64,000 nt of DNA from Alphaproteobacteria bacterium. Its GTDB lineage: Bacteria > Pseudomonadota > Alphaproteobacteria > SMXQ01. The notes under the pieces were generated by a model, which did not search any database, was not told the origin of the DNA, and worked only from the letters and a program-made list of their open reading frames with translations. The stretch lies in the NCBI GenBank assembly GCA_009380075.1, contig WHSO01000003.1, forward strand, positions 4,724-68,723, written 5' to 3'. Position numbers and translations under genes: made by a program. Positions 26,594 to 51,256 of this stretch are shown piece after piece. How positions within the stretch are numbered: position 1 is the first letter of the stretch; each line of letters opens with the position of its first letter.

Positions 26594-26705
26594 GTTTTCC
26601 TCCTTTTCACGCCTTCCGGGGTGACCCGGATCGGCCGTGGTTCACAAGCCCGTTCTTCTTGACTTTCTTGAGCCGCCCAAAGAATACAGGATATCGGGAC
26701 CGGAA

Positions 26706-27662: not shown

Positions 27663-27759
27663 TCCTTTTCCTCATACACGGGACAGGCACAACGACTGTG
27701 GTGCCCGGTTTCGATTCCTGCGCAGGAGTATCCGATGCCGCTATTCCGGACTCGATCCG

Positions 27760-28875: not shown

Positions 28876-28928
28876 TACGTCCCCGTTACGTTTTCTTCAC
28901 TTACGCACCCGTCTCTCAGGCGCCGCAC

Positions 28929-30722: not shown

Positions 30723-30784
30723 CCCCGGGCAGGGCGCGGATGGGCGGCCGGTTGTCCATTGTGCAGGTGGTCTTCATCCCCGTT

Positions 30785-31939: not shown

Positions 31940-31999
31940 TTGTTCCTCTCCCGCCGGGACCCGCTCCCGGCTCCTTATCTTTTGTTCTACAGCCGTTTC

Positions 32000-33148: not shown

Positions 33149-33194
33149 GGAACCTTTTCCTCCCCTAGTTGGTGCTAACAGCGCAACGCGCTCC

Positions 33195-34304
33195 TTATTT
33201 TTTCGCCATCAGCTTCTTCATGATCCGGCGAATCTGGGCGCGCTTCGTGACGACAAAATCCCAGTCATAGGTATCGAAATATTCGACGCCCGGCTTTGGA
33301 ATGGCCTCCGGTGTAAGATAGCTCGCTTCGTCGATGTCGTTGCGGGTCGGCACCTCCGCGCGTGCGCGACTGTAGATTTCCATGCCTTCCTTGGAAGCAA
33401 TCCAGTTCACGAAGACTTTTGCCGCGCTGGGGTGCGGTGCGCGGTTGAGCAGGCCGATCATGCCGAAGCCTGCGGACGTTGTCAGGGGCAGGCCGATCAC
33501 GTCATCGACCTCCTTGACCGGGAAACCCTGCTTCCGCGCCTCGGCGACATCGTCGTCGCCGGCGTTGAAGACGATGGGGTAGGTGCCCCGGACGAGCCAG
33601 TCCGCCAGTTGGCGCCGGTCCCGGCTGATCCGTGGTTTCTGGTCGACGAAGAGTTTCTTGACGAAACCCTCACCCTGGGAAATATAGACCCGCGCCGCCA
33701 GGGTGAGGCCGCTGCCTGACAGCGTCGGGTCGTCCATGGCGATCTTGCCCCGCCATTTGGGATCGACAAGATCCTTGATCGAGCGGATCTCATCCGCCTT
33801 TACCTTCGCCGTATTTATGTAGAACGATCGCTGAACGTTGTTGGATATTCGCAATACGTAGTTTTTTTCGGGGTCGACGAACCAGAGACCGCCGCGCTTC
33901 CATTTCGAACCGTCCAGCACCTCCGGCAGGACAAGTGCCGGCTTCAGCGGGTCCAGCATCTTTTCGCGATAGTAGACGATGGCGAGGGTAGACAATCCGG
34001 CGATGACGGCATCGGCTGTATAATGCCCAGCCGCGCGCTCAGTGGCGATGCGCGCCGCGGACGAACGCCCACGCCCGCCGATATACTCGAGATCGATATC
34101 GAACCGTTTTTTGAAGGCCCTGGGAAGTTCGCGGCGGACGTCGGCATCTGGCGGCCCGACGACCACGATCTTACCCTCCGCCCGTGCCGCGGCGACCAGT
34201 TGATCCCATGCCTGGTCCGCGCCCTGGGCGAGCGACGTCCAACAAATGAGGGCCGCATACACGCCTGCGGCAAACGCCGCTCTGGAAATTCCCCCGACGT
34301 TCAT
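33195..34304 (-). CDS. ABC substrate-binding protein, Fe3+/polyamine class
   Basis: Signal peptide; AAARAEGKIVV, DLVDPKWRGKI, RAPHPSAAKVFVNWIAS. Confidence 0.8.
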   Translation of the reverse strand: MNVGGISRAAFAAGVYAALICWTSLAQGADQAWDQLVAAARAEGKIVVVGPPDADVRRELPRAFKKRFDIDLEYIGGRGRSSAARIATERAAGHYTADAVIAGLSTLAIVYYREKMLDPLKPALVLPEVLDGSKWKRGGLWFVDPEKNYVLRISNNVQRSFYINTAKVKADEIRSIKDLVDPKWRGKIAMDDPTLSGSGLTLAARVYISQGEGFVKKLFVDQKPRISRDRRQLADWLVRGTYPIVFNAGDDDVAEARKQGFPVKEVDDVIGLPLTTSAGFGMIGLLNRAPHPSAAKVFVNWIASKEGMEIYSRARAEVPTRNDIDEASYLTPEAIPKPGVEYFDTYDWDFVVTKRAQIRRIMKKLMAKK

Positions 34305-34380
34305 TCCTGTCCCCCTGTCGTCGTGCATTGGTTTCTGCACAATCGCTTATTCGGAATTTGTTGTGTCCTAGTATTGCCCG

Positions 34381-34398
34381 GATTGCGTCAGATTGCGT
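34381..34398. repeat. GATTGCGT direct repeat (10-bp period) in the AT-rich divergent promoter
   Basis: gattgcgtca gattgcgtac at 34381 and 34391, between divergently transcribed SBP genes. Confidence 0.45.
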
Positions 34399-34567
34399 AC
34401 CTGAAAAAATTGCTGATTGATTCAATTAGTTTTTTTCGCCAGAGTACTTAAAGGGATGTCAGGCTGGCACAACATGGTCATTTGGCGCAAAGGAGAATTT
34501 CCCGGACGTTGATTATAATTTCCCATTCCTAGTTGTGGCGCAGGAAAAATAGATCAGGGAGGCTGCT

Positions 34568-35677
34568 GTGCGCGTGACAAGAATCGCCGGACGAATATTG
34601 GGATTTGCTGCGCTGGTGCTCCTCTTGTGGGTTGGTCAGGGATGGGCCGTCACCCTTGACGAGCTTGCCGCCGAGGCCAGGAGCGAAGGAAAGGTCGTCG
34701 TGATCGGGCCGGCGCACCAGGCCGTGCGCCGTGAACTGCCGGCAGCGTTCAAGAAGCGGTTCGGCATCGACATGGAGTATCTAGGTGGGCGCGGTGGCGC
34801 CGCCGCCGCGCGCATCCAGGCAGAGCGTGCCGCGGGGCACTACACGACCGACGTGGCGCTCGCGGGAATCCAGACGCTTGCCACGGTGATGTATCCGCAG
34901 GGCATGCTCGATCCCATCAAGCCGATTCTCGTCGTCAAGGACGCGCTGGCCGGCCCGCATTGGCGCACCGGTGAGCCATGGTTCATCGATCCGAAGAAGG
35001 AATACGCGCTGCGCCTGTTTTCCTACGTCGGTGAGATGTTCACGATCAACACCAAGCACGTGAACCCGGAGGAAATCAAATCGGCGCGTGCGCTCCTCCT
35101 CAATCCGAAATGGAAGGGAAAGATCGTTGCCCATGACCCCCGCGGCAGCGGCACCGGCAGTAACGTAGCGACCCAGTACTACCTGAAGCTAGGCGGAGAG
35201 GAGTTCCTGCGCAGGTTCTATGTCGATCAGCAGCCGAAGTTCAGCCGCAACGAGAGACAGATCACGGACTGGTTGCTGCGTGGCACCTATCCCATCGTCA
35301 TCGGCGGGGACTTCGCCGAGGTCGAAAGGATGCGCGCGGAAGGCCATCCCGTCATGTCGATCTACAAGCTGCCGGATCTCCAGCCCATGCTTTCGGGCGG
35401 TAACGGCAATATTGTCATGTTCAACAAGGCGCCCCATCCGAAGGCGGCGAAGCTGCTGATCAACTGGCTTGCCTCGAAGGAAGGCCTCGAAATCTACGCC
35501 CGCGTCAGCGAGCGCGCGACGAACCGGGCCGACGTCAACGAGAAATCGTTCCTGACGGAACACATCATTCCCAAGCCGGGCGTCGAATACTTCGATGCCT
35601 ATGACTGGGAATTTTCGGTCAATACCAAGGCCAAGGTCCGCCGGATGTTGAAAAAGATGCTGAGCAGCAAGAACTAG
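34568..35677 (+). CDS. ABC substrate-binding protein, paralog of 33195-34304
   Basis: GTG start, signal peptide; RRELPAAFKKRFGIDMEYLGGRG, KAPHPKAAKLLINWLAS, PKPGVEYFDAYDWEF shared with its divergent neighbour. Confidence 0.8.
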   Translation: MRVTRIAGRILGFAALVLLLWVGQGWAVTLDELAAEARSEGKVVVIGPAHQAVRRELPAAFKKRFGIDMEYLGGRGGAAAARIQAERAAGHYTTDVALAGIQTLATVMYPQGMLDPIKPILVVKDALAGPHWRTGEPWFIDPKKEYALRLFSYVGEMFTINTKHVNPEEIKSARALLLNPKWKGKIVAHDPRGSGTGSNVATQYYLKLGGEEFLRRFYVDQQPKFSRNERQITDWLLRGTYPIVIGGDFAEVERMRAEGHPVMSIYKLPDLQPMLSGGNGNIVMFNKAPHPKAAKLLINWLASKEGLEIYARVSERATNRADVNEKSFLTEHIIPKPGVEYFDAYDWEFSVNTKAKVRRMLKKMLSSKN

Positions 35678-35735
35678 ATCGCAGCCGGAACGGATATAGG
35701 GGCCGACAGGCCCGATACACGGCGGGGAGGGAGTC

Positions 35736-36779
35736 ATGGAGAGCATCTTTTACATCGGCACCGAGTCAGGGGTGATCACCGCGCGCAGCCGCGACCGCGA
35801 AAACTGGGAAATTGTCGAAAGAGGTCTCCGGGACTGGGACGTGCCGGAAGTCGCCGTGGTACCCGGTCGCCCGAACAGAGTCTTTGCCGGCACCCGCGGT
35901 GACGGCGTCTGGATGAGCGACGACTTCGGCAAGTCCTGGGCAAAGCCTTGCTACGGCAAGCGAGGGCCCGGGAAGGTCAAGAGCCTCACCATCGATCCGC
36001 ATGATCCACGACGCCTGTATGCGGGATGCGAGCCCATCGACATCTTCGTCAGCGAGGACGAGGGCAGAAGCTGGAAGCGCCTGGATTCAGTCTGGGACGA
36101 TCCGTTCATCGCCACGATTCCCTATCCGGTCAAGACCGTCGAACCCCATGTCCGCGACGTGACGGTGGATCCCACCGACCCGAACATCCTTTATGCGGCC
36201 CTTCAGGTGGGTTTCATCATCAAGAGCACCGATCGCGGCAAGACCTGGAAGCTCCTGAACCGGAATTTGGACTGCGACGTTCACACCGTCGTTGTCGATC
36301 CGAAGGATCGTAACCGCATTCTCGTGTCCACCGGCGGCCACGACGCGCGGCGCGGCACCGCCCCGGGCCGGGCGCTGTACGTGAGCGAGGACGCAGGTGA
36401 GTCCTGGACGCCCTTGGCGACCAATTTTCAGGAGGAATACGCCATTCCTCTGGTCTTCGATCCGGGCGATCCGAGCCGCGTCTATTCCGCCGTCGCCAAC
36501 GGCCAGCCGGGCCAATGGCGCCGCCGTGACACGGGCGCCGAGTCCACCGTGATCCGCTCCACGGACGGCGGGCGTTCCTGGGAAAAGCTCGAGCACGCGA
36601 TCGCCCGTGCTTATTTTCCCGAAGCGATCGTTGCCGACGATGCCGTGCGTGGAGGCATTTACGCGGCCTGCCGGAACGGCGATTTCTACGGCAGCGACGA
36701 CGGCGGGGATAGCTGGCGCAAGCTGCCGCTCGATCTCAGGATTTCCGATCTCTCGAGCTTCACGCTCGCGCACGCGTGA
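35736..36779 (+). CDS. BNR/Asp-box beta-propeller protein, no signal peptide
   Basis: SDDFGKSW, SEDEGRSW, STDRGKTW, SEDAGESW, STDGGRSW, SDDGGDSW repeats. Confidence 0.82.
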   Translation: MESIFYIGTESGVITARSRDRENWEIVERGLRDWDVPEVAVVPGRPNRVFAGTRGDGVWMSDDFGKSWAKPCYGKRGPGKVKSLTIDPHDPRRLYAGCEPIDIFVSEDEGRSWKRLDSVWDDPFIATIPYPVKTVEPHVRDVTVDPTDPNILYAALQVGFIIKSTDRGKTWKLLNRNLDCDVHTVVVDPKDRNRILVSTGGHDARRGTAPGRALYVSEDAGESWTPLATNFQEEYAIPLVFDPGDPSRVYSAVANGQPGQWRRRDTGAESTVIRSTDGGRSWEKLEHAIARAYFPEAIVADDAVRGGIYAACRNGDFYGSDDGGDSWRKLPLDLRISDLSSFTLAHA

Positions 36780-36899
36780 TCCCACGGGTGACCCAGGTAT
36801 CCGGAGCCGGCCGATTTCGGGCCGCTGGCCCCGTGACTCGCGATTGCGACCATCTCCGAAACGACTCCCTCTCCCCATGAACCACGTGAAACAGGACAC

Positions 36900-37619
36900 A
36901 TGACCGATATTCTGCATCTCAAGGAAAAGCTGGCACAGGCATGCCGGGTGATCGGGTTGCTCGATCTCACCAAGGCGACCACAGGGCACCTCAGCCTCCG
37001 CATTCCCGGCACCGACAAGGTCCTGATCCGGGCCCGCGGCGACTTCGAATCGGGCGTGCGCTATACTGCGGCGGACGACATCATCACCGTCGACCTGCAG
37101 GGCCGGAAGCTCGAGGGCCGCGACGATCTTGACCCCCCGCGCGAGGTGTACATCCATACCTGGCTCTATCGCACGCGACCAGGCATCGGTGCCGTGGTCC
37201 ACGCGCATCCGCCGACCCTCGTCCTCTTCACCGTGTGCAAGAAGCCCTTGCTGCCGATCTATGGCGGCTACGACCCGAGCAGCCTTCGCATGCTGATGGA
37301 AGGCGTCCCTACCTATCCGCGCAGCGTCACCGTGACCAATGACACGCTGGGTGAGGAATTTGCCCAGGCCATGGGGACCCGCGCCTGCCTGATGCGCGGG
37401 CACGGGATCACGACCTGCGGTGGCGACGTGGAGGACGCGGCGCTGACCACCATCAAGCTCAATCACCTTGCGGAAATGAATTTCCGTGCCTACCAGCTCG
37501 GCGATCCGGAACCGATTCCCGATGACGACATCGCGGCGTTCTCGAAGTCCAGGACCGTGAAGGACAACGCGCCCGTGTGGACCTACTACTGCAAACTGGT
37601 GGGCGAGGACGCGATCTAG
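36900..37619 (+). CDS. Class II aldolase/adducin family protein
   Basis: GHLSLRIPG, EVYIH, VVHAHP and MRGHG zinc-binding motifs. Confidence 0.88.
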   Translation: MTDILHLKEKLAQACRVIGLLDLTKATTGHLSLRIPGTDKVLIRARGDFESGVRYTAADDIITVDLQGRKLEGRDDLDPPREVYIHTWLYRTRPGIGAVVHAHPPTLVLFTVCKKPLLPIYGGYDPSSLRMLMEGVPTYPRSVTVTNDTLGEEFAQAMGTRACLMRGHGITTCGGDVEDAALTTIKLNHLAEMNFRAYQLGDPEPIPDDDIAAFSKSRTVKDNAPVWTYYCKLVGEDAI

Positions 37620-37631
37620 CGGCGCGGCACG

Positions 37632-38717
37632 ATGAGCGACGTCGTCCTCGAATTCCGTGATGTCCTGAAACGCTTCGGCGGAACGACCATCGTTGATCGC
37701 GTCAGTTTTACCGTGAACCGCGGGGAGTTCTTCACCCTTCTGGGGCCCTCGGGCTGCGGCAAGACGACGACGCTCAGGCTCATCGCTGGGCTGGAGGTGC
37801 CCGACGGCGGCGAGATCGTCCTCGACGGGCAGACGCTCGCTGCACCCGCCGCCGGCATCTGCCTGCCGCCAGACAAGCGTAATCTCGGCATGATGTTCCA
37901 GTCCTACGCCATCTGGCCGCACCTGTCGGTGTTCGAGAACGTCGCCTTCCCGTTACGCGTACGCCGGGTTCCGGAACCGGATATCGCGCGCAAGGTGACG
38001 GAAGCGCTGGAACTGGTCGGCCTCGCCGGCATGGAAGGACGCGGTGCCACGCAGCTTTCCGGCGGGCAGCAGCAGCGCGTGGCTCTTGCCCGCGCGGTCG
38101 TCTATACGCCGAGCCTCTTGCTTCTGGACGAGCCTCTCAGCAATCTAGACGTCAAGCTGCGCGAGCAGATGCGCATGGAACTGCGCGCGTTGCAGCGGCG
38201 TCTCGACCTCACGGTCATCTATGTCACCCACGACCAGTCCGAAGCCATGTCGCTGTCCGACCGCGTCGCGGTCGTCAACAAGGGTCGATTCGAGCAGGTC
38301 GGAACCCCCCAGGAGATCTACGAACGCCCGCGCAAGCGCTTCGTTGGCGATTTTCTCGGCCGGACCATCATCGTCCGCGGCATCGTTCGGGGCACCGCGA
38401 GCGAACGCTGGGTCGAGCTTCCGGGCGCCGAGCGCATTGCCGTGCCGCCCGAAACCGACGCCGGCGTGACGGAGGGCACGCGGGTACGGGTGCTCTGCCG
38501 GCCCGAGGAGGTCACCCTGCTTCCCGGCGGCGAGTCCGCGCCCAATCAGGTCACTGGGCGCATCGAAACCGTGACCTACATGGGCGATCACCTCGAATAC
38601 ACCATCCGCGCCGCCGAGCTTGAACTGCTTATGACCGCCAGCAAGAAGACGCCGCAACCGGTCGGCGCCGAGGTCCGCCTGCAATTCGATCCGCAGGCGG
38701 TCACGATCCTGCCATGA
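37632..38717 (+). CDS. ABC transporter ATP-binding protein (FbpC/PotA-like)
   Basis: GPSGCGKTT, LSGGQQQR, LLLLDEPLSNLD, TOBE-like C-terminus. Confidence 0.92.
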   Translation: MSDVVLEFRDVLKRFGGTTIVDRVSFTVNRGEFFTLLGPSGCGKTTTLRLIAGLEVPDGGEIVLDGQTLAAPAAGICLPPDKRNLGMMFQSYAIWPHLSVFENVAFPLRVRRVPEPDIARKVTEALELVGLAGMEGRGATQLSGGQQQRVALARAVVYTPSLLLLDEPLSNLDVKLREQMRMELRALQRRLDLTVIYVTHDQSEAMSLSDRVAVVNKGRFEQVGTPQEIYERPRKRFVGDFLGRTIIVRGIVRGTASERWVELPGAERIAVPPETDAGVTEGTRVRVLCRPEEVTLLPGGESAPNQVTGRIETVTYMGDHLEYTIRAAELELLMTASKKTPQPVGAEVRLQFDPQAVTILP

Positions 38718-40471
38718 GCGATGCGCCGATTTTCAGGCCGGGCTTTCGACTTCTTGGCTTCAGCGCCGTGGAGATCGTCGTACTGGCGCTGTTCGCCTTC
38801 CTGATGGTCCTGCCGGTCGTCTCGCTCTTTGTCGGCAGCTTCAACATCGCCTCGCCCACGCAACCGGCGGCCTATGGCTTCAGGAACTGGATCACCGCCT
38901 TTTCAGACCCCAAGACACTGGACGCGCTGGGGCTGAGTTTCCTGTTCTCGATCGTGCGGCTGGGGCCGTCGCTGCTGCTGGGCGTCCTCGTGGCCTGGCT
39001 CATCGCGCGTACGGACATGCCGGGCGGGCACGTGGTGGAGGTGGCGTGCTGGTTCGCCTTTTTCGTGCCCGACTTCCCACTGACGCTGGCGTGGATACTG
39101 TTGCTCGATCCGAACTACGGCTTTCTAAACACGGCCTTGATGTCGCTGCCGTTCATCGAGGAGGCGCCGTTCGATCCCTACACGTTCTGGGGCATCGTCT
39201 GGGTCCACATGGGAACCGGCGGAATCTGGTTCAAGGTGATGCTGCTCACGCCGCTGTTCCGCCGTATGGGCGCGACCCTGGAGGAGGCCGCCCGCGTCGC
39301 CGGAGCGAACACGTTCACCACGCTGCGGCGGGTGACGATTCCGGTGCTGTCGCCGATGATCTTTGCGGTCGGTGTGCTGGGGTTCATACGCGGTCTGGAA
39401 TCCTTCAACACGGAACTCCTGCTCGGCCTTCCCGCCGGCATCTACATCTACGGCACCCGTATCTACGACTACCTCCAGGAGGAGCCGGCCCAGTATGGCG
39501 CCGCCACGGCGCTCGGCTCGGTGTTCCTCGTGGTCCTCGCCGTGCTCGCCTTCCTGTACCGCCGCTATTTCCAGGCCGACCGAAAATTCGCGGTGGTGAC
39601 GGGGCAGGGGTATTCGACCATGCGCGTGCGGCTCGGCCGATGGCGATACGTCGCGCTCTCGGGCGTCATTCTCTATTTCGCCGTCATGATGGTGCTGCCG
39701 CTGGTGTTCCTCGTCATCGGCTCCTTCATGCGCCGTTACGGTTTCTTCAACCTCGATGACCCCTTCACGTTTTCGCACTGGCAGAACCTGTTCCGTGATC
39801 CCGTGTTCCTGGGTTCGCTCACCAACAGCCTGATGATCGCGGGCATGACTGCCGTCATGGGTGTCATTGCCTATTCCTCCGTCGGCTACATGCTGGCGTC
39901 GCCGCATCCCGTGCGTAGCCGCGGCATTCTCGAATTCCTGTGCTGGCTCCCCTGGGTAATTCCCGGCATCCTGCTCGGGCTCGGGCTGCTGTGGATCTTC
40001 CTGGCGACGCCGTTGAGTGTTTTCCTTTATGGAACGATCTTTGGTATCGCGCTGGCGCTCACCATCCAGGACAGTCCCGTCAGCACCCAGGCCTTCAAGT
40101 CGGGATTCCTGCAGCTCGGGCGCGACCTCGAGGAAGCGGCGCGGGTTTCTGGCGCATCATGGCGTTACACCTATTTCCGCATTCTCCTGCCGCTGGTGGC
40201 GCCGGTGGCGCTCACGATCGGGATGCTCAATTTCGGCAGCGCCATGACGACCATCAGCATTCCGGTCCTGCTTTACAGCGCGCAGTCCCGGCCGCTATCC
40301 ATCCTTCTGCTGGAATATTCTTTTTCCGGGGAACTGGAACGCGGCGCGGCCCTTGGTTTGTTGATCACCGTTATCATCTGCGCAATGATCGTCGTCGGCA
40401 GGCGTTTCGGTCTCCTCGACCTGAGCCAGAGCGGCGGCGGCCGTGACAAAACGCGGGGAGACGCCGGGTGA
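38714..40471 (+). CDS. ABC transporter permease (fused two-domain FbpB-like)
   Basis: LEEAARVAGA and LEEAARVSGA EAA loops; many TM segments. Confidence 0.88.
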   Translation: MSDAPIFRPGFRLLGFSAVEIVVLALFAFLMVLPVVSLFVGSFNIASPTQPAAYGFRNWITAFSDPKTLDALGLSFLFSIVRLGPSLLLGVLVAWLIARTDMPGGHVVEVACWFAFFVPDFPLTLAWILLLDPNYGFLNTALMSLPFIEEAPFDPYTFWGIVWVHMGTGGIWFKVMLLTPLFRRMGATLEEAARVAGANTFTTLRRVTIPVLSPMIFAVGVLGFIRGLESFNTELLLGLPAGIYIYGTRIYDYLQEEPAQYGAATALGSVFLVVLAVLAFLYRRYFQADRKFAVVTGQGYSTMRVRLGRWRYVALSGVILYFAVMMVLPLVFLVIGSFMRRYGFFNLDDPFTFSHWQNLFRDPVFLGSLTNSLMIAGMTAVMGVIAYSSVGYMLASPHPVRSRGILEFLCWLPWVIPGILLGLGLLWIFLATPLSVFLYGTIFGIALALTIQDSPVSTQAFKSGFLQLGRDLEEAARVSGASWRYTYFRILLPLVAPVALTIGMLNFGSAMTTISIPVLLYSAQSRPLSILLLEYSFSGELERGAALGLLITVIICAMIVVGRRFGLLDLSQSGGGRDKTRGDAG

Positions 40472-40517
40472 ACCTGCCGAGCAACGACGTGGCCAACCAG
40501 AAGGAAGTTCGGAAAGA

Positions 40518-41453
40518 ATGAGGACGATCCGTCTGGCCTACCGGGACGACGACCGGACGCCGGTCATTTTCTGCATCAAGGAAATGGCGCGGCGGCACTA
40601 CGACGTCGATATCGACGTCGTCAAGATCAAGGGAACCGAAGAGTACGAAGCGGCGCTCTTCGACGGTGCCTGCGACGTCATCATCGAGCACCTGGAATAT
40701 CTTTTCGACGAGGCCACCAAGGGCCGGAAGATCACCATGTTTTCGGCGCCAAGCACAGGTGGCGGCCTGCAGCTGGTGGTGCCCTCGGGTGTCAGGGATG
40801 TGGCGGATCTGAGGGGTGGGACCATGGCCGTGCGCTCGTCGGGGCAGCCTCACGCGGTCACGCTCTGGCTCCGGATGATGGGCCTCGAAAGAGATGTGAA
40901 GACGGTGATCGTCAAGGACAGCGAGGTCGGACGCTGGGGCCAATGGAAGAAGGTCCTGTCCGGGAAATGCGTCGCCGCCTTCATGTCGCCGCTCTATATC
41001 CCCGAGGCCCTGAAAGGCGGGTTGAAGGTCCTCGTCGTCCCGGACGTGCCGATCGTCGGGCATTTCGCGCAGGCATGCCTGTCGCGTTTTTCCGAGGAGA
41101 ATCCCGAACTGTTGAAGGATTACGTGCGCGCCGGCATTCACGCAGTCTGCCTCATGCTGCTCGACCGTCCGCGCGCTCTCGCTATATGCTCGGGCGAACC
41201 GATGAAGCGTCTCGGCATTGCGGACAGGGATGAGCTCGAGCGGCAGTTCGATTCGATCGTCAGTTCGCTGAAGGCGAGGCCCTATCCCACGCCCCAGGCC
41301 ATCGCCAACAGCTACGAAATCGCCACGCTGGACTATCCCGCCGCCGCGGGAATGAACCCGATGTGCCTGTGGAATCTGCGCTGGGTGAAGGAGCTCGACG
41401 ACGAAGGGTTCATCGACAGGCTGGTCGAGAAACTGTCAAAAAAACATCGATAG
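40518..41453 (+). CDS. NMT1/THI5-like (class II periplasmic-binding fold) protein lacking a signal peptide
   Basis: LVVPSGVRDVADLRGGTMAVRSSG, WLRMMGLE, LSGKCVAAFMSP and RPYPTPQAIAN resemble SsuA/NMT1 proteins; the N-terminus is hydrophilic. Confidence 0.65.
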   Translation: MRTIRLAYRDDDRTPVIFCIKEMARRHYDVDIDVVKIKGTEEYEAALFDGACDVIIEHLEYLFDEATKGRKITMFSAPSTGGGLQLVVPSGVRDVADLRGGTMAVRSSGQPHAVTLWLRMMGLERDVKTVIVKDSEVGRWGQWKKVLSGKCVAAFMSPLYIPEALKGGLKVLVVPDVPIVGHFAQACLSRFSEENPELLKDYVRAGIHAVCLMLLDRPRALAICSGEPMKRLGIADRDELERQFDSIVSSLKARPYPTPQAIANSYEIATLDYPAAAGMNPMCLWNLRWVKELDDEGFIDRLVEKLSKKHR

Positions 41454-41471
41454 GGTTAGGGAGGAATTGTC

Positions 41472-42635
41472 ATGCGCAACGGCTACAAGGTCTACGATGC
41501 GGATACGCATATCCGTCCCTCCGCCGAATCCCTGCGGCCATACCTGTCGGACAGGATCCTGCAAGGGATCCCCGATCTCGATGAGAATCGCGAGGAGATT
41601 CACGTCGGCATGGCGGGGGAGAAACGGGAGCCTCCGTACCGCCACTGGTACCGCTTCCGGTGGAACGAGGGCTGGAGCAAGTCGCCGCCGCGCTTTCTCG
41701 GCGAGGCGGGGCCGCGCAAGGACGCCAGGCGGCACTTCCAGACCTTCATGGGCGTAAAATTTCCGACCGAAGGCGGCGGGGACTACGATCCGGCTGTGCG
41801 GCTGCGCGACATGGATACCGAAGGCGTCGACGTGCATTTCATCGTGCATACCTGCAACATCGGCCACCCGGATACGGACATGGAGATGGAGTTCGTCTAT
41901 GCTCAGCACCGTTTTCTGAACGATTTCTGCGGTCGCGATCCACACCGCCTCAAGACCTGCATCATCGTGAGCCCGCTGTCGGTCGAAGGATCGGTGGCGG
42001 AAATCAGGCGCTGGGGCGCAAGCCCGTGGGCCGTCGCCGTGCAGCCCAAGTTGCCGATCGACTACCCCATCGACCATCCGGACCTGCATCCGATCTGGGC
42101 GGCGGCGCAGGAGGCCGGGCTCTGCGTCATCCATCACAGCCTGTCCTCGGGCTACCCCGGCTATCGGGATCTCTGGGGCAATCCGTTCATCGGGCGCTGC
42201 GCAAGCCACCCGTGGGCCGCCATGCGGGCGGTGGCGGCGTTCTTCGGTGCGGGCCTCATGGACCGCTACCCGAAGCTTCGCTACGGCATCCTCGAATCGG
42301 GGTTCGGCTGGCTGCCGTTCTGGTCCCGGCGCATGGACGACCAGGTCGTCTACCTCGGCTACGTCGCGGACGACCTTCAGAAGAAGATGAGCGAGTATCT
42401 GACCGACGGGCGGTTCTTCGCCGCGATCGAGCAGCATGAGGGCGCCGACATGGCCAAGCATTTCAACGACTTCATGGGCGATCACCTGCTCATGTTCGGG
42501 TCCGATTATCCGCATGCCGAATCGCGCTTTCCCGAATCTGCCGACCGTGTCTTGAAATGGGAGCAGGCCATCGGACGCGAGGCCATGACCAAGCTGATGT
42601 GGGACAACGCCGTACGCTTCTTCGGCGAACCCTAG
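41472..42635 (+). CDS. Amidohydrolase family 2 protein, close paralog of 1210-2370
   Basis: DADTH, HH, LESGFGWLPFW, FGSDYPHAESRFP. Confidence 0.87.
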   Translation: MRNGYKVYDADTHIRPSAESLRPYLSDRILQGIPDLDENREEIHVGMAGEKREPPYRHWYRFRWNEGWSKSPPRFLGEAGPRKDARRHFQTFMGVKFPTEGGGDYDPAVRLRDMDTEGVDVHFIVHTCNIGHPDTDMEMEFVYAQHRFLNDFCGRDPHRLKTCIIVSPLSVEGSVAEIRRWGASPWAVAVQPKLPIDYPIDHPDLHPIWAAAQEAGLCVIHHSLSSGYPGYRDLWGNPFIGRCASHPWAAMRAVAAFFGAGLMDRYPKLRYGILESGFGWLPFWSRRMDDQVVYLGYVADDLQKKMSEYLTDGRFFAAIEQHEGADMAKHFNDFMGDHLLMFGSDYPHAESRFPESADRVLKWEQAIGREAMTKLMWDNAVRFFGEP

Positions 42636-42655
42636 CGTCGGCAGGGGAGGGCGGC

Positions 42656-43873
42656 ATGTCGGCCTCGGGGAAGAAGACGGTGCTCGGCGTCGGCATCGTC
42701 GGGCTCGGCGGTGCCGCGGTTGGCATGATACCCGGCTTTCTCCGCAACCCCCGCTACCGGCTGGCCGCCGCGGCGGACCTCGACCGCACGGTGCTCGACC
42801 GCTTTGCCGCGGATTTCGACGGCGCGCGCACGTATACGGAGGTTGCGGCGCTCTGCGCCGATCCGAACGTGGACCTGGTCTATATCGGAACGCCCAATCG
42901 CCTGCACAGCGAACACGCGCTGATCGCGCTCGAGCATGGCAAGCACGTTCTGACTGAAAAGCCTATGGCAGTTACGCTGGAAGACGCGGATCGCATGATC
43001 GAGACGGCGGACCGCAATGGCGTTCTCCTCGGCGTCAACGTCAAGCACAGTTTCGAGCCGCGCATCCGCAGGATCCGGGAGTTCGTCACCAGCGGGGAGC
43101 TCGGCGCGCTGCGCATGATCAACAGCTGGCGCTACGTCGACTGGCTCTATCGTCCGCGAACGACGGCGGAACTGACACCGGGATGGGGCAACGGCATCCT
43201 CTGGCGGCAGGGACCGCACCAACTCGACATCATCCGCACCATCGGCGGCGGCAAGGTGCGGAGCGTGCGCGGGACGACGGGAACCTGGGGCCCGGCGCGC
43301 CGCGTGCCGGGAACGTTCTGCGTGTATTTCGAGTTCGAGGACGGCGCCTGCGGCACGGCCGTCTGCGCCAGCTACAACCATTTCGATTCCCGCGCCTTCG
43401 TCTATGGCTTCGATGGCGATACGCCGCTCGTCGATGCCGGACGACATGCCAAGGCGCGACGGGAGTTGACGGAACATGCCGGCGATCCGGCCTGGGAAAA
43501 TGCTGCGGCCGGCGCGGAACGCTACGGCGGGGGGCGCGAGAGCACGGCGGCCTCCCACGTTGCCGGACAGTCGCGCGGCTGGATTCTCGGGGGACCCCTG
43601 ATTGCGAGCTTCGACCGCGGCGACGTGCGCCTTTCGCCCAAGGGACTGGTCGTCGATGGCGACGAACGCCAGTGGGAAATTATCTTTCCGCCCGGCCGCA
43701 ACGGCGTCGATGGCCGCCTCGACAGTTTCTATGAAGCGATGGTCCACGGGCGGCCGCTCATGGCCGATGGGCGCTGGGGCAAGGCGACCCAGGAAATGCT
43801 GATCGCGGTCGAACGCTCGGCCGAAACGCGCAGCGAGATTCGCCTGGCCCACCAGATCGCGGCCGTCGACTAG
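42656..43873 (+). CDS. Gfo/Idh/MocA oxidoreductase resembling phthalate 4,5-cis-dihydrodiol dehydrogenase (OphB/Pht4 type)
   Basis: GIVGLGG, HVLTEKPMA, DWLYRPR..EL, QGPHQLDIIRTIGGGKVRSV, NHFDS. ATG at 42656 follows GGGAGG. Confidence 0.8.
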   Translation: MSASGKKTVLGVGIVGLGGAAVGMIPGFLRNPRYRLAAAADLDRTVLDRFAADFDGARTYTEVAALCADPNVDLVYIGTPNRLHSEHALIALEHGKHVLTEKPMAVTLEDADRMIETADRNGVLLGVNVKHSFEPRIRRIREFVTSGELGALRMINSWRYVDWLYRPRTTAELTPGWGNGILWRQGPHQLDIIRTIGGGKVRSVRGTTGTWGPARRVPGTFCVYFEFEDGACGTAVCASYNHFDSRAFVYGFDGDTPLVDAGRHAKARRELTEHAGDPAWENAAAGAERYGGGRESTAASHVAGQSRGWILGGPLIASFDRGDVRLSPKGLVVDGDERQWEIIFPPGRNGVDGRLDSFYEAMVHGRPLMADGRWGKATQEMLIAVERSAETRSEIRLAHQIAAVD

Positions 43874-44991
43874 TCACCCTCATCGCCGTAGGTCCACCGG
43901 TAATCCCGGTTCTCGTAGCATTCGTGCGGCATCTGGCTCTTGTGGCCGTTCTTTTCGCACTCTTCCTCGAACTTCCGGCGGATATAGGCATCTTCGTCCG
44001 GGTATTCGATCTGGCGCTCGGCGCGGTCGGCGAGGGTCTCGCCCTTGCCCCGGAACTGCGGCAGGGGGCCGAGCGCGAGATAGCGCGCTGCGGTCGTACC
44101 GGTGTTGAAATGCTGGTGGTACCAGTCTTCCGGCGGGACGAAGACCGTCGCCTCGCGCCACGGGCAGACGATTTTCTCGCCGCCCTTCTTCCACAAGAGC
44201 GAAAAGCCCTCGCCGGCGGGAATGACGATGACCCGCCCGGGGCCGTGCCGGTGGCCCTTCTTGTACAAGCCGGGACTGAAGACCGACATGTGGGCGCCCA
44301 TTTCGGCATCCGGGAAGCGCATGAAGATGGCCGTGCCGCCGGCGCCGCGATCGCGAAAGGCGTTGAGCCGGTCCCAGTGGCCGAGGTCGGGGAAGAAATT
44401 GCCGATCCAGTAGACGCCAATGGCCGGCGCGTTCTCCCGGTCGTCCCTGATTTCCTGCGGCTCGCTGTAGAGCTCGTCGTCGTCGCGCAGCAACGGCCCT
44501 CCCTGGTACGGGTTGTTGAAGAAGAAATCGGGATCGGGCACCACCGACATCGCCACCGGCAGGTAATTGTAGTGCAACAGTCGCGCTGGCCTGTCGCCAC
44601 TCGCGTTGTAGATCTGGTGGTGCAGGTGGCGCGGTAGATGGAACAGGCTTTTCTCGTCCCATTCGAAGGTCCGGCGCTCGCCGCCGCGTTCGTTCCAGAC
44701 TGCGGTCAGGCCCTGGCCTTCCAGTACGTAGACCAGTTCGCCGATGGGCATCTTCATCGGCGGAATCGCCTTGCCCGGCGGCAGTTCGACGATGCGCGCT
44801 TCCGACACGCCCTCCATGCCCTTGAGATGCAGGAACGCGGCATGGACCTGGCGGTCGTCCCACCATCCGAGGTCGATGGATTTGAGGTCCGCCACGTGAT
44901 GGCCTTCGTAGATGGGGATGCCGATAGATTCCATCCATTTCTCGTACGGCATCTTGCGCCGCTTTTTCTTCCTTGGTTGTGCGGGTTTCAT
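43870..44991 (-). CDS. Bicupin protein (gentisate 1,2-dioxygenase-like fold)
   Basis: ELVYVLEGQG...HHQIYN, then YKKGHRHGPG...VPPEDWYHQHFN. True start is ATG 44991 after GGAGG; the longer ORF upstream is an alternate frame of tctAB. Confidence 0.78.
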   Translation of the reverse strand: MKPAQPRKKKRRKMPYEKWMESIGIPIYEGHHVADLKSIDLGWWDDRQVHAAFLHLKGMEGVSEARIVELPPGKAIPPMKMPIGELVYVLEGQGLTAVWNERGGERRTFEWDEKSLFHLPRHLHHQIYNASGDRPARLLHYNYLPVAMSVVPDPDFFFNNPYQGGPLLRDDDELYSEPQEIRDDRENAPAIGVYWIGNFFPDLGHWDRLNAFRDRGAGGTAIFMRFPDAEMGAHMSVFSPGLYKKGHRHGPGRVIVIPAGEGFSLLWKKGGEKIVCPWREATVFVPPEDWYHQHFNTGTTAARYLALGPLPQFRGKGETLADRAERQIEYPDEDAYIRRKFEEECEKNGHKSQMPHECYENRDYRWTYGDEGD

Positions 44992-45011
44992 ATGTTCCTC
45001 CGGCGGACCTG

Positions 45012-46994
45012 TTACGACAACGTGTCCTGTAGCCACTGCCACAGGACGGGTTCGGGCCAGATCATGCTCATCACGTGATCGAAGAACCCAAAGATGGCGG
45101 CGGCAATGATTCCGCCGGTGAGGATACCCCAGGCCCACGGGCGCCGCCCCGTCATCAGCGCCGCGGGCGACACTGCCGCCAGGGCGATCGCGGCGTATTG
45201 CAGTCCGACCAGCGCGGCGAGGACGACGAACAGCAGCAGCAACCCGCCGAGTATCAGCGCCGACCGCCCGCGCCCTTCGACACCGGCGCTGAGCATGCCG
45301 AGGTCGAGAACGTCGCCCACGCCACGCTGCCAGCCGTTGAGGACAATCTGCGCCAGCGCAAGGCCGATCACCAGAATGCCGAGGCCGAGGGGAAAACTCG
45401 CGGCCTTGGGCTCGAGTCCAACCGCCCGCCAGATGAACCAGGCCGCGATGGCGATGAAGAACGTAGGGAAGAGATTCTGCCAGGTCCAGCGCCATCGTTC
45501 GCGAACGGCCGTCGTGGCGGGTTCGCTGTCCATGCCTGTCCTGAGACGGGCAAAGAAGATAGCGATGGCGACGGCGAGCACCAGCAGGGCGATGGTCAAG
45601 GGCCGCTGGAGCATGCCGTCGACACCATAAAGGGAGATCGCCGAAAGCAGGTTCTCCTCGACGATGCCGCCAAGGATGAAGCCGAGGATCAGCGGCGGCC
45701 GCGGCCAGCGATACTGCTTCATCAGAAGGCCGAGCACGGCGAAGGCCAGCACGATCGGGATGGCGGTCCAGTGGCGGGTTTCCTGAAACGCCGACAACAG
45801 CGCCAGAGGAATGATGACCGCACCCAGCAGCGGGTAGGGCACGCGGGTCAGTTTCGCCAGCTGTCCCGACCACAGGATTCCAATGATCGCGAGCGCGGCA
45901 TTGCCCATGACCATGCTGACGACGATCAGGGTGACGATGTCGCCGTGCTGGCTCAACATCTGGGGCCCGGGTGAAACACCGTAGGCGAGCATGGCGATGA
46001 GCACGAACACCCAGCTCTGTCCCCCGGGCAGGCCGAGGGCGAGTGTGGGGATTGCCTGCCCCCCTTCCTTGGCGCTTTGCACCGATTCCGAGAACACCAG
46101 CCCCTTGTAGGAACCCTTGCCGAAGTGATGGCGGTTCTTCGCCAGTGAAATGCCGATGCCATAGGACAGCCAGGACACGACCCGCGAACCCACGCCGGGG
46201 ATCGCGCCGAGGAACACACCAAGGATGGAGTGGCGCAGGACCAGTTGCCAATACCGGAAGGCGAGACCGACCCCGCGAAACACCTCGCGCGTACGCAGGT
46301 TTTCCGCACGCCCGGCGATGGCCTTGCGGGTCATCGTCAGGTCGAACATCTCCGGCAGCGCGAACAGGCCGATGGCCGTGGCGATGATCGGCAGCCCCTC
46401 GCGCAGTTGCAGGGAGCCGAAAGTGAAGCGTTCCTCCCCGGTAAAGACGCTGAGCCCGATGGTCGACAGCAGCATGCCGAACGCCGCCGCCAGGATGCCC
46501 TTGACCATGGCGCCGCGCGACAGCGCACCGACCATGGCGACGCCGAACAGGCCCATGGCTCCGATCTCGGCAAAGCTGAATTGCAAGATGAACGGCTTGA
46601 TGACGGGCATGACCAGCAGGAGCGCCACGGCGCCAATCAATCCGCCCATGGCAGAGACCGTGTAGACGAACCCCAGTACCCGAGCCGCGTGCCCCCGGGA
46701 GGACAGGGGCCGGGCTTCGATGAATGTAACCTGTCCGCCGCCCGGATGGCCGAGCGCGACAATGGGCAGCACGTCAAGCATTTCCTCGACCGCGGTGATC
46801 GTCGCCAGCATGGCGATGCCGATGACAGGATCCTGAATGTTGAAAACGATGAAGGGGACCGCGAGCGCCATCAGCAGGCTCGACGACACGCCGGGCAGCA
46901 GGCCCGCCACCGCGGCCATGGCCACGGCGGTCAGGAACGCCAGCCAGTAAGTCTGGGAGCCGAGCAGTCCGAACCCGGCGAAGATCGCGTCCAT
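45012..46994 (-). CDS. tctA: TctA-TctB fusion tripartite tricarboxylate transporter permease
   Basis: AGLLPGVSS, ERFTFG, FLGAIPGVG, KEGGQAIPTLALGLPG, WPRPPLILGFILG, plus a C-terminal 4-TM TctB-like domain ending IWPEP. Confidence 0.87.
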   Translation of the reverse strand: MDAIFAGFGLLGSQTYWLAFLTAVAMAAVAGLLPGVSSSLLMALAVPFIVFNIQDPVIGIAMLATITAVEEMLDVLPIVALGHPGGGQVTFIEARPLSSRGHAARVLGFVYTVSAMGGLIGAVALLLVMPVIKPFILQFSFAEIGAMGLFGVAMVGALSRGAMVKGILAAAFGMLLSTIGLSVFTGEERFTFGSLQLREGLPIIATAIGLFALPEMFDLTMTRKAIAGRAENLRTREVFRGVGLAFRYWQLVLRHSILGVFLGAIPGVGSRVVSWLSYGIGISLAKNRHHFGKGSYKGLVFSESVQSAKEGGQAIPTLALGLPGGQSWVFVLIAMLAYGVSPGPQMLSQHGDIVTLIVVSMVMGNAALAIIGILWSGQLAKLTRVPYPLLGAVIIPLALLSAFQETRHWTAIPIVLAFAVLGLLMKQYRWPRPPLILGFILGGIVEENLLSAISLYGVDGMLQRPLTIALLVLAVAIAIFFARLRTGMDSEPATTAVRERWRWTWQNLFPTFFIAIAAWFIWRAVGLEPKAASFPLGLGILVIGLALAQIVLNGWQRGVGDVLDLGMLSAGVEGRGRSALILGGLLLLFVVLAALVGLQYAAIALAAVSPAALMTGRRPWAWGILTGGIIAAAIFGFFDHVMSMIWPEPVLWQWLQDTLS

Positions 46995-47031
46995 CTCGGT
47001 TCCGATCCGTGTCCGCCTGAGGACCGGCAAT

Positions 47032-48291
47032 CTAGCGCGACGCGGTGTCCAGCTCCTTCAGAAGGGGGCTGTATTTCGTCGTGTTGCCGCTGCGGAGGCC
47101 CTTGATGACGTTGCCCGCGGTGCCGGCGAGCTTGGCCTTTTCGACCGGCAGGTCGATGGGGGCCATGTCGGGATCGCGAAACACGTTCATCGGGTCCTTG
47201 CCGGCGGCGACGGCCTGGAGCGATTCCTCCAGCAGCTTGCGATAGAGCACGATCCCCTTGTCGGACCGGCCCAGGTTCTCGAGCGACCGGTTCGCGATCG
47301 GGCCCTGGGTGATCCAGGCGACGATATCCTGGCCACTATTGTTGTCGAGGATGTCCCACTGCGGCAGCCCGGTGTCGTCGAGCTGGGGCACAGGTGCGGA
47401 GAAAAGAGGAATCTCATCCTTGGGCTGGGGATGGAGAGGTACGCCCGATTCGGGCGTGTAGCAGCGGTACCACCAGTAGGCGGTCTGGGTATCGTCCATC
47501 GGGACGCGGATCTGGAACGCCGGCGAGGAGACACTACCGCTCTTTAAAATGTTCGGGAAGACCACGGGGTGGCCGGTCGTCCAGTCCTCGTCCGCTTCGC
47601 TGCGACCCTCCAGCACGCGGCGCTTGATGATACCGTAATCGAAGACATCGAAGCCGATCTTCTGGTGGGACTGGGGGTTGCGTATTTTCTCCGGCTTACC
47701 CAGCTTGCCCGCCACGTAATTGCGCAGATGCTGGTGCAGCCATTCGACATGGATGGGATCGAGGGAATTTTCCATGATCTGCAGCCAGTTGCACGGCACC
47801 ACGGCGTAGCCGATCTCACGCATGACGTCCTTCGCGACGAAAAGGTCGTAGGGCGGCAGGACGGGGACCGGATCGGGCCCCATGTACGCGAACAGCATGC
47901 CGCCCGATTCCGCTATCTTGTAGGCTGGCGTCCTGATCCGGTCCTTGAACCGTCCTTCGGGGTTTTCCGTGTCTTCATACGGCTGTTCGATGCAGGCGCC
48001 GGTCTTGTCGAAGTGCCAGCCATGATAGGCGCAGCGCAGGCCGCATTCGGTCGGGATGCCGTAGACGAGCGACATGCTGCGATGGGGACAGCGCGCCGCG
48101 ATCAGTCCATAGGCCCCGGACAGGTCACGATAGAGCACCAGATCCTCGCCAAGCAGGCGGACGGGGAGCGTGTCGCGGTTCTTCATCTGAGCGTGCGTCG
48201 CGATCGGGTACCAGTAACGCCGCAGCAGGTCGCCCATCGGCGTGCCTGATCCCACCCGGGTCAAACGTTCATTCTGTTCCGAAGACAGCAT
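47032..48291 (-). CDS. Rieske non-heme iron oxygenase alpha subunit, phthalate 4,5-dioxygenase / LigX-like clade
   Basis: LTRVGSGTPMGDLLRRYWYP, CPHR...CAYHGW Rieske motif, NWLQIMENSLDPIHVEWLH, QDIVAW...NRSLENLGRSDKGI. Confidence 0.88.
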   Translation of the reverse strand: MLSSEQNERLTRVGSGTPMGDLLRRYWYPIATHAQMKNRDTLPVRLLGEDLVLYRDLSGAYGLIAARCPHRSMSLVYGIPTECGLRCAYHGWHFDKTGACIEQPYEDTENPEGRFKDRIRTPAYKIAESGGMLFAYMGPDPVPVLPPYDLFVAKDVMREIGYAVVPCNWLQIMENSLDPIHVEWLHQHLRNYVAGKLGKPEKIRNPQSHQKIGFDVFDYGIIKRRVLEGRSEADEDWTTGHPVVFPNILKSGSVSSPAFQIRVPMDDTQTAYWWYRCYTPESGVPLHPQPKDEIPLFSAPVPQLDDTGLPQWDILDNNSGQDIVAWITQGPIANRSLENLGRSDKGIVLYRKLLEESLQAVAAGKDPMNVFRDPDMAPIDLPVEKAKLAGTAGNVIKGLRSGNTTKYSPLLKELDTASR

Positions 48292-50182: not shown

Positions 50183-51256
50183 TCAGTTGAGCCCATAGAA
50201 CGCCCGCGCGTTGGCATCCAGGATCTTGTTGACCGTCTGCTCCGGCAGTTTTCCCTCGTCCCGCATCAGGCGCATGGCATCGATCTCCGTCGCCTGGTCA
50301 TGATGGCCGTAGTCGGTCCCGATCACTAGGTTGTCGTCGCCGACCTTGCTGATGATATAGGGCAGGTCGTCGGTCATCTGACAGGCGACATAGATGTTGT
50401 TGCGCTTGAGAAGGTCAGCCGAGCTCCAGCTCGGGTTGTTCCGGTTCTTCCAGTAGCTGAGTTCGGTATAGTTGATGGCGTAGGGTACCCAGGAGGCGCT
50501 GAATTCGACGAATCCCCAGCGCATCTTCGGGAACTTCTGTGGAATGTCGCGCATGATGAGGGCATGAAACGCGCCGACGCCGGGCGAACGGTTGGACATG
50601 AACCGGGTCGAGGAATTCTTGAACAGGTTCATATACGTCGCGCTATGAATGCCTGAGTGGATGCAGGCCGCAAGGTCGAGTTCCTGCGCGATTTCCCACA
50701 GCGGATAGAAATAGGGATCGTCGAGTTCGCGGTCGTTCTCGATGCCGACGAGAAAGATGCCGCAGGCGCCGTTGTCCTTGCAGAAACGGAGCTCGTCCGC
50801 GACCTTCTCCCTGGAGCGCAGCGGCGGAATCGCCACCCAGCGCAGGCGGTTGTCGCTCTTCTTCCAGATATCGGCGAGCCAGCGGTTATAACTGCGGATC
50901 AGCGCCCATTCGCAGTCCGGGTTCTCGGTCTTGCTGCTGAGGAAATAGGTCGGATACAGGACCTGGACGTCGATGCCCATCTGGTCCATATGGGCGAGCC
51001 GGCCCTTGATGTCGGTCATTTCACGCTGGCCCGGCGTGGTTTCGTCATAGCCCTGGTTGCGCGTGGGCGACCAGACATTGCCGTCCACCAGCCAGTATTC
51101 CTTGCTACGGGCCTTGCCTCCTTGGGTATCGATGATGTCGTCGGGGGACGAGTGCAGGAGGACGGGACGGTATTTCTCCTGCCCCTTCTCCATATAGGTG
51201 AAGGTCCGCAGGGTTTCGATCACATGGGCATCGGAATCGACGATCTTGAGAGACAT
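50183..51256 (-). CDS. Amidohydrolase family 2 protein (more distant paralog)
   Basis: VDSDAHV, RLAHMDQMGIDVQVLYPT, CIHSG, GTDYGH. Confidence 0.85.
   Translation of the reverse strand: MSLKIVDSDAHVIETLRTFTYMEKGQEKYRPVLLHSSPDDIIDTQGGKARSKEYWLVDGNVWSPTRNQGYDETTPGQREMTDIKGRLAHMDQMGIDVQVLYPTYFLSSKTENPDCEWALIRSYNRWLADIWKKSDNRLRWVAIPPLRSREKVADELRFCKDNGACGIFLVGIENDRELDDPYFYPLWEIAQELDLAACIHSGIHSATYMNLFKNSSTRFMSNRSPGVGAFHALIMRDIPQKFPKMRWGFVEFSASWVPYAINYTELSYWKNRNNPSWSSADLLKRNNIYVACQMTDDLPYIISKVGDDNLVIGTDYGHHDQATEIDAMRLMRDEGKLPEQTVNKILDANARAFYGLN

Follow-up and report, generated by a model that had tools for sequence, protein, structure and literature searches.

An alpha-only Rieske oxygenase and an OphB-like dehydrogenase on converging operons: probable core of a catabolic module for an aromatic carboxylate other than o-phthalate

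What would an alpha-only Rieske oxygenase and an oxidoreductase of the Gfo/Idh/MocA family (Gfo hereafter) accomplish together when their operons run towards one another and no reductase is encoded beside them? The question is raised by a stretch of 64,000 nucleotides from an alphaproteobacterium (GTDB lineage SMXQ01; GenBank assembly GCA_009380075.1, contig WHSO01000003.1, positions 4,724 to 68,723), which we call the window. Its contig (C100) belongs to a genome of 3.54 Mb in 162 contigs that is 97% complete. Our answer, which we regard as probable rather than assured, is that this pair and the genes around it make up the core of a catabolic module which is conserved and which serves an aromatic carboxylate other than o-phthalate, by a pathway of five steps. 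The pathway would be a variant of a well-known type, and the oxygenase belongs to a large family that is uncharacterised and mislabelled.

The Rieske gene and its N-terminal motif are present where the original prediction had placed them (Table 1); the protein begins with ERLTRVGSGTPMGDLLRRYWYPIA and the ATG at 48291 is preceded by the Shine-Dalgarno sequence GGGAGGG. A phmmer search of the PDB returned the phthalate dioxygenase (PDO) PDO_KF1 (7fjl; 172 bits, E 1.4e-49), the Cupriavidus protein RO_CH34, an oxygenase whose function is not known (162 bits), and isophthalate dioxygenase (IPDO; 125 bits), the next match scoring 55 bits. The AlphaFold model (pLDDT 85.7) was compared with about 48,000 PDB representatives and ranked the same three proteins highest, with Z scores of 32.8 for PDO (7fjl), 31.4 for IPDO and 30.4 for RO_CH34. 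They stand 6-8 Z units above the demethylases and monooxygenases, namely NdmA (24.8), the guaiacol demethylase GdmA (23.9), CarAa (23.6), DdmC (23.5) and SxtT (23.1); LigXa, CbaA and TsaM lay outside these rankings as well as outside the tree described below. The residues C68, H70, C87, H90, D178, H181, H186 and D322 align with the ligands of PDO, and 89-90 of the 90 sequences of the family keep the metal ligands and the bridging Asp unchanged. K223, R224, R225, H241, Q260 and R262 are further invariant residues. The proximity to phthalate-type dioxygenases that had been proposed is thus upheld, both sequence and predicted fold favouring PDO and IPDO over the solved demethylases.

With the class IA enzymes PDO_KF1/Pht3/OphA2 and IPDO (9ina/9ioy) the protein shares the alpha-only architecture (no beta subunit was found in the window), the N-terminal motif, the Rieske and 2-His-1-carboxylate ligands and the bridging Asp178, at 32% identity. 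The genes of its relatives, like those of these enzymes, adjoin genes for PDR-type reductases and Gfo dehydrogenases. Unlike them, the window locus is without a reductase and joins the Rieske gene to a bicupin gene and a TctA-TctB fusion.

This kinship does not extend to the substrate pocket. PDO positions its substrate with Arg207 and Arg244, together with Ser179 and Ser182 (PMC8649396). As an anchor for the alignment we used the oxygenase of a canonical pht operon (MFS transporter, PDR, oxygenase, Gfo and NMT1-like Pht5) carried on a Pseudomonas luteola plasmid, in which every residue described for PDO_KF1 is present with identical numbering. In a MAFFT alignment against this anchor the window protein lacks the PDO determinants (S179 to P, S182 to V, R244 to T, F339 to N, and a deletion of the R207 region), and the phmmer alignment gave the same outcome for S179, S182, R207 and R244, with the reservation that the alignment is less certain at residues 200-250. 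The PF19301 model of the PDO/LigXa-type catalytic domain gave only 58 bits in two partial stretches, as against 547 bits over positions 1-294 for the canonical PDO. Since the substrate residues are not conserved and the PF19301 match is so weak that the protein falls outside the core of this PDO/LigXa family, the sequence marks the protein as a relative of the phthalate-family dioxygenases and not as a PDO proper. The absence of the specificity residues likewise makes it probable that the substrate is not phthalate, as had been supposed.

A tree of 98 family members was rooted on the verified PDO; it was built by a quick method and has some long branches. The window protein falls in a four-member clade (starred in the tree) with three syntenic relatives, and this clade is nested in a large family that long branches set apart from PDO. 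Gene contexts with Gfo, aldolase, bicupin or PDR are spread across several clades of the tree. Nearly all homologues (P0005-P0124) carry the JGI label 5,5'-dehydrodivanillate O-demethylase, a name unsupported by gene context, which is that of ring-dihydroxylating systems. The label comes from automatic KO-based naming, which puts the family with LigXa, the oxygenase of a three-component system of Sphingobium sp. SYK-6. LigXa is a demethylase and works without a dihydrodiol dehydrogenase; that the linkage to an OphB-like Gfo is conserved speaks against a role in demethylation. A match on a Novosphingobium plasmid (H6) was considered as a LigXa reference and set aside, because it has no lig context.

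The Gfo gene, with the motifs quoted for it earlier (YRPRTTAEL and QGPHQLDIIRTIGGGKVRSV), is likewise present as described. Its product matched 3moi (E 2.6e-65) and 7wzd (4.5e-65) at 223-224 bits in a search of the PDB, and the best sugar-type enzyme reached 8.5e-23 and 84 bits. Its full-length identity to Pht4 from the canonical pht operon is 34%. The placement of this protein near phthalate dihydrodiol dehydrogenase, and not with the sugar dehydrogenases, is therefore sustained, and similarity together with linkage to an oxygenase gene suggests an enzyme of the OphB/Pht4 type. Like 7wzd, the cis-4,5-dihydrodiol-phthalate dehydrogenase, it has the EKP and HQxD motifs along a full-length match and adjoins a PDO-like oxygenase. 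It differs from OphB/Pht4 in being only about one third identical and in being transcribed towards the oxygenase operon, not inside it.

The two operons converge, as predicted, around the bicupin and TctA-TctB genes: a + strand gene string spans 34568-43873 and ends with Gfo, the - strand genes span 48291-43870, and the stop codons of Gfo and bicupin share a single CTAG (Table 1). The same module was found in three other long alphaproteobacterial contigs (L001, labelled Hyphomicrobiaceae, L002 and L005), whose Rieske proteins are 69-76% identical to that of the window and whose Gfo orthologues are 61-66% identical. All three have the order Rieske, TctC-like binding protein, TctA-TctB fusion, bicupin, with Gfo converging on the bicupin; in L001 the two genes overlap by the same 4 nt, and in L002 and L005 they converge closely. 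The TctA-TctB fusion is kept in these three and in L029.

Related arrangements occur across phyla. A plasmid of Peribacillus sp. R9-11 from Arctic sediment (locus L007; plasmid pA, NZ_CP133764.1, 98724-117938) carries an operon of an IclR regulator, Rieske (50% identical to that of the window), class II aldolase (38%), Gfo (42%), TrxR-like reductase, Fer4 ferredoxin and intradiol dioxygenase, with a UbiD decarboxylase nearby. As it is self-contained and on an isolate's plasmid, this operon may be a handy experimental entry to the Rieske family. Burkholderiales loci combine PDR, Gfo, Rieske and aldolase genes, in one case with TctC-TctAB, and Paraburkholderia caffeinilytica has a near-complete set (NMT1/Pht5-like, PDR, Gfo, Rieske, TctC, aldolase and TctA-TctB fusion). 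We surveyed 84 related loci, 80 of them in species-representative genomes and the others being L001, L002, L005 and the Peribacillus locus. Within the flank searched, an OphB-like Gfo gene was present in 24, a bicupin in 17, the aldolase in 15 and a PDR-type reductase in 6; Gfo and aldolase occurred together in 10.

The host genome itself repeats the association. It contains three copies of the OphB-like Gfo and three close copies of the aldolase, and every one of these six genes lies within 10 kb of a Rieske gene of the family. Four further paralogous modules were found, on contigs C29 (aldolase, Gfo, an NMT1-like gene between Gfo and Rieske, Rieske, TctC), C89 (Gfo, Pht5-like, Rieske), C162 (aldolase, Rieske, then three bicupins, no Gfo) and C61 (Rieske and bicupin, no Gfo). 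The roughly 12 family Rieske genes, taken with 5 kb on either side, cover about 3% of the 3.5 Mb, and by a rough estimate the chance that two further Gfo genes would adjoin them is about 1 in 1000. Because the arrangement recurs in three other contigs and across phyla, and because all three Gfo copies of the genome follow it, the pairing of Rieske and Gfo is not a matter of chance. The linkage is not valid for the whole Rieske family, since the module is absent from two relatives at about 60% identity (L003 and L006).

Within its taxonomic family, four genomes belonging to other genera contain orthologues of the Rieske protein (73-76% identity), and the seven congeneric genomes searched contain none. 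Paralogues are present in 15 of the 18 genomes of the family, and at E <= 1e-60 there were none in 12 genomes of other families in the class. Given these patchy orthologues and the concentration of paralogues in one family, the module would seem to be accessory, inherited in patches within an expansion peculiar to the lineage. A multiplication of alpha-only 'phthalate dioxygenase' genes whose substrates are not known is on record for SAR202 (PMC6946804). In soil and marine metagenomes, homologues of the Rieske protein number in the thousands (6,142 of 8,000 candidates scored).

How the oxygenase would receive its electrons is the next point. The original prediction held that the window encodes no reductase, and profile searches bear this out: no match to NAD_binding_1, Fer2 or Fer4_13 was found in the window, and the only Pyr_redox_2 match, at 20 bits, was below threshold. 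A single other Rieske-domain match lies on the contig, outside the window. The search was extended to the whole genome, and the expectation of a reductase encoded elsewhere agrees with two orphan genes of the PDR type (FMN/[2Fe-2S]) that match 2pia, on contigs C9 (L009:1993-2967, - strand; E 2.5e-82) and C23 (L008:9634-10638, - strand; E 2.4e-64), neither of which has a Rieske-domain match. PDR genes 41-50% identical to the orphans adjoin family members in six loci; the Peribacillus relative differs in having a TrxR-like reductase and a Fer4 ferredoxin in place of PDR. As the genome has about 25 Rieske genes of oxygenase size, the simplest reading is that reductases are shared among oxygenases. 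Unlinked electron-transfer genes have a precedent in LigXc and LigXd, the partners of LigXa (PMC12997858). Elsewhere in the genome, at C128:5615-7340 and C127:4005-6700, a small gene with a Rieske domain has a Pyr_redox_2 gene in its vicinity; from their coordinates these look like pairs of Rieske ferredoxin and FAD reductase, possibly donors for three-component oxygenases or for the amidohydrolase-related dinuclear oxygenases (AROs) discussed below.

The claim that the locus has no canonical decarboxylase does not stand, because the operon of Gfo contains two candidates. One is a class II aldolase-fold protein, which matches the whole NF053537 model (3,4-dihydroxyphthalate decarboxylase PhtC) at 183.8 bits (E 3e-54), under the equivalog cut-off of 200 bits. 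By sequence it is a close relative of PhtC and not an equivalog. The Glu, the HxH and the His that bind metal in class II aldolases are kept. Close paralogues adjoin family Rieske genes on C29 and C162. It resembles PhtC, the 3,4-dihydroxyphthalate 2-decarboxylase of Gram-positive phthalate pathways, in its fold and in its co-occurrence with Rieske and Gfo genes. In those Gram-positive pathways PhtC works with an alpha/beta oxygenase, and the window protein, unlike PhtC, is partnered by an alpha-only Rieske oxygenase and a Gfo dehydrogenase.

The other candidate is an NMT1-like protein that had no Pfam match and was placed with NMT1/THI5 clusters by an atlas feature search (0.97-0.99). Aligned with the Pht5 family by hhalign, it gave a probability of 98% (E 1.5e-13); pairwise similarity to Pht5 was not found, so the kinship is one of profile to profile. 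A match of this kind means a common fold family with Pht5/OphC and not a common function, and a role as decarboxylase is therefore a lead only. No segment resembling a signal peptide was seen at the N-terminus when inspected by eye, without a prediction tool. A paralogue is present on C29.

A hydrolytic or decarboxylating step had also been assigned to the amidohydrolase-type neighbour, the PF04909 protein encoded just upstream of Gfo, and this assignment is not supported. AROs are recognised by an N-terminal D-x-H and a C-terminal D-x-P-H-x-[D/E] motif (PMC13154177). The PF04909 protein has DTH at residues 11-13 and DYPHAE at 345-350, and no conserved counterpart of it adjoins the module's relatives in the 84 loci. 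On these two grounds it is probably neither a decarboxylase nor a hydrolase, and its link to the module is uncertain. The AROs PtmU3, AibH2, SfbO and DitZ resemble it in both motifs and in its best PDB matches, and it differs from them in having no Rieske ferredoxin near. A second copy at 1210-2367, 69% identical, has the same DTH and DYPHAE motifs; each of the pair lies near a TctA-TctB fusion, and neither has a Rieske ferredoxin close by. A third PF04909 protein (50183-51256, - strand), one with about ten genomic paralogues (40-48% identity), shows D-A-H at the N-terminus and D-Y-G-H-H-D at the position of D-x-P-H-x-[D/E], a near miss.

The bicupin is a plausible but weakly supported candidate for a ring-cleaving enzyme, judged from its sequence and model. 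Residues H248, H250, H293 and H295, all in the C-terminal barrel, are invariant in 34 homologues. The model (pLDDT 87) matched gentisate 1,2-dioxygenase 3bu7 with Z 21.6 (rmsd 6.1 A over 278 residues) and salicylate 1,2-dioxygenase 2phd with Z 20.7, and the sole PDB sequence match by phmmer, of the gentisate/salicylate type, had E 2.7e-5 over 70 residues. The protein shares the bicupin fold and the HRH-containing 3-His motif with 3bu7 and 2phd at 13-17% identity, and differs from them as a separate family in which the C-terminal barrel alone retains the metal triad. That family comprises at least 2,194 unnamed, uncharacterised metagenomic proteins. Paralogues of the bicupin number 21 in the genome, at 27-37% identity, and several of them stand three in tandem; they lie on C29, C162, C125, C81, C6 and other contigs and amount to an unusually large expansion of the cupin family.

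Uptake would be served by a tripartite tricarboxylate transporter (TTT), of which TctA and TctB are fused in the window. The TctC gene that stands between Rieske and TctAB in L001, L002 and L005 is absent at that spot, and no TctC adjoins the fusion. Among about 93 TctC-like matches in the genome the closest counterpart is at C109:31742-33094, 61.5% identical to the TctC of L001. The usual gene order is tctB-tctA, which the fusion reverses, TctB being C-terminal. Another TctA-TctB fusion, 46% identical, straddles the window start (C100:3867-5873). A shared ABC importer was also considered and rejected: the binding protein that adjoins the Pusillimonas aldolase shares only 24% identity with that of the window, which gives no evidence for a common importer.

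From the gene identities, the linkage and the metal ligands observed in these sequences we infer the catalytic steps, the electron donor and the class of substrate. The TTT transporter would import the acid, with TctAB encoded here and the orthologous TctC on another contig. The alpha-only oxygenase would then form a cis-diol with electrons from a remote reductase, likeliest one of the two orphan PDR-type FMN/[2Fe-2S] enzymes, and Gfo would re-aromatise the dihydrodiol to a dihydroxy acid. Carboxyl groups would be stripped by the PhtC-like aldolase-fold enzyme, possibly with the NMT1-like protein, and the bicupin would finally open the ring at the 3-His iron site of its C-terminal barrel. The predicted sequence of dihydroxylation and re-aromatisation holds in outline, to judge from the kinship of Rieske and Gfo and from their conserved synteny. 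TTT uptake and the presence of up to two decarboxylase candidates suggest that the substrate is an aromatic di- or tricarboxylate. The opa pathway of Pseudomonas PTH10 was dismissed as a comparison, its oxygenase being an unrelated alpha/beta enzyme (PMC6362003).

Several observations weigh against this reading. About 70% of the related loci have no Gfo in the flank searched, and some have only a bicupin, so that parts of the Rieske family may be monooxygenases; no member of the family is characterised, and LigXa, the namesake of the automatic annotation, was outside the comparisons made. The three nearest relatives have no aldolase within 10 kb, and decarboxylation may therefore lie outside the core of the module. 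The ABC importer, the BNR propeller and the ARO-type oxygenase of the + strand string could serve another pathway. The dioxygenase matches of the bicupin exceed those with bicupins of the seed-storage and oxalate-decarboxylase kinds by only about 2 Z, Foldseek put generic bicupins first (TM about 0.47), and the metal site that the bicupin has in its C-terminal barrel is N-terminal in gentisate and salicylate dioxygenases.

The Rieske protein could be a monooxygenase or O-demethylase like LigXa whose product goes straight to the bicupin, Gfo oxidising an unrelated sugar or alicyclic alcohol brought in by the ABC importer, with which it shares a strand. The JGI name of the homologues would fit, Gfo is missing from the modules on C162 and C61 and, to a distance of 10 kb, from most related loci, and in nine Chloroflexota/Binatia loci Rieske is followed by the bicupin alone. 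We consider this unlikely, however, because the predicted fold is 6-8 Z nearer PDO/IPDO than NdmA, GdmA, DdmC and SxtT, because Gfo scores 223 bits with dihydrodiol-phthalate dehydrogenase as against 84 with the sugar type, and because every Gfo copy of the genome adjoins a family Rieske gene and the tail-to-tail overlap of Gfo and bicupin is conserved. It is improbable to a similar degree, if slightly more so, that the module is a divergent but true pathway for phthalate, isophthalate or terephthalate. Here the nearest solved relatives are PDO and IPDO, Gfo resembles Pht4, the aldolase is just under the PhtC cut-off, the Peribacillus operon ends with an intradiol dioxygenase and has a UbiD decarboxylase nearby, and TctC-type binding proteins serve isophthalate and terephthalate systems. 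The PDO determinants S179, S182, R207 and R244 are absent, however, the PDO-type C-terminal Pfam model gives 58 as against 547 bits, and five paralogous modules in a genome of 3.5 Mb can hardly all have phthalates as substrates. Phthalate has been doubted as the substrate in the SAR202 literature likewise (PMC6946804). Lastly, two operons on opposite strands, one with a transporter of its own in the + strand string, might be unrelated and merely abut. We give this very little credence, since the convergence recurs with overlapping stops in L001 and closely in L002 and L005, and since Rieske and Gfo stand in one operon in other phyla.

If the preferred reading of an aromatic-carboxylate module is right, its logic is that of the textbook, so that what would be gained is a new substrate and a new family, not a new principle. 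It is conceivable, though we put it forward tentatively and hold it to be doubtful, that the Rieske family and its recurring partners (OphB-like Gfo, PhtC-like and Pht5-like decarboxylases, C-terminal-barrel bicupin and fused TctAB) represent an undescribed and widespread route for natural carboxyl-rich aromatics. Candidate substrates would then be benzene tri- or polycarboxylates, or else hydroxylated dicarboxylates derived from lignin, from humic matter or from organic matter after photo-oxidation; a module with two types of decarboxylase would suggest that its substrates bear three or more carboxyl groups. A large share of what is counted in metagenomes as 'ligXa' or 'phthalate dioxygenase' would belong to such a route; labels of LigXa and phthalate dioxygenase serve as markers of the turnover of lignin and recalcitrant carbon (PMC13270027). 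The Rieske family is accompanied by a dihydrodiol dehydrogenase, by candidate decarboxylases and by a bicupin of ring-cleaving type, and it has cultured carriers, among them Paraburkholderia caffeinilytica and Pusillimonas noertemannii; a problem of annotation thereby becomes testable at the bench.

Table 1. Genes of the two converging operons, with positions in the window.
Feature	Position	Strand	Basis and remarks
Rieske non-haem-iron oxygenase, alpha-only, 419 aa	47032-48291	-	Pfam Rieske and partial LigXa_C match
Fused TctA-TctB of TTT, 672-aa frame	45012-47030	-	Pfam TctA 3.7e-89, residues 31-449; TctB 522-659; likely start ATG at 46994
Bicupin, 374 aa	43870-44994	-	3-His site in C-terminal barrel only; ATG at 44994 with GGAGG ahead
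Gfo and bicupin stop codons overlapping in one CTAG	43870-43873		Read directly from sequence
Gfo/Idh/MocA oxidoreductase, OphB/Pht4-like, 405 aa	42656-43873	+	Pfam, PDB matches, synteny
PF04909 protein with ARO motifs	41472-42635	+	Best PDB matches 8sm9 and PtmU3
NMT1/THI5-like (PBP-fold) protein, probably cytoplasmic	40518-41453	+	Atlas feature search, hhalign; likely start Met26, at 40518
ABC importer, fused double permease	38714-40471	+	Pfam BPD_transp_1; NCBIfam
ABC importer, PotA-like ATPase	37632-38717	+	Pfam ABC_tran/TOBE_2; NCBIfam
Class II aldolase-fold protein, PhtC-like	36900-37619	+	NCBIfam NF053537
BNR/Asp-box propeller	35736-36779	+	Pfam
ABC solute-binding protein	34568-35677	+	Pfam; probable start of the + strand string

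The region at 25535-36779 of the window, which takes in the start of the + strand string, consists of two divergent ABC arms with a BNR/Asp-box propeller in each; the - strand arm encodes three tandem solute-binding proteins and a 2-hydroxyacid dehydrogenase.

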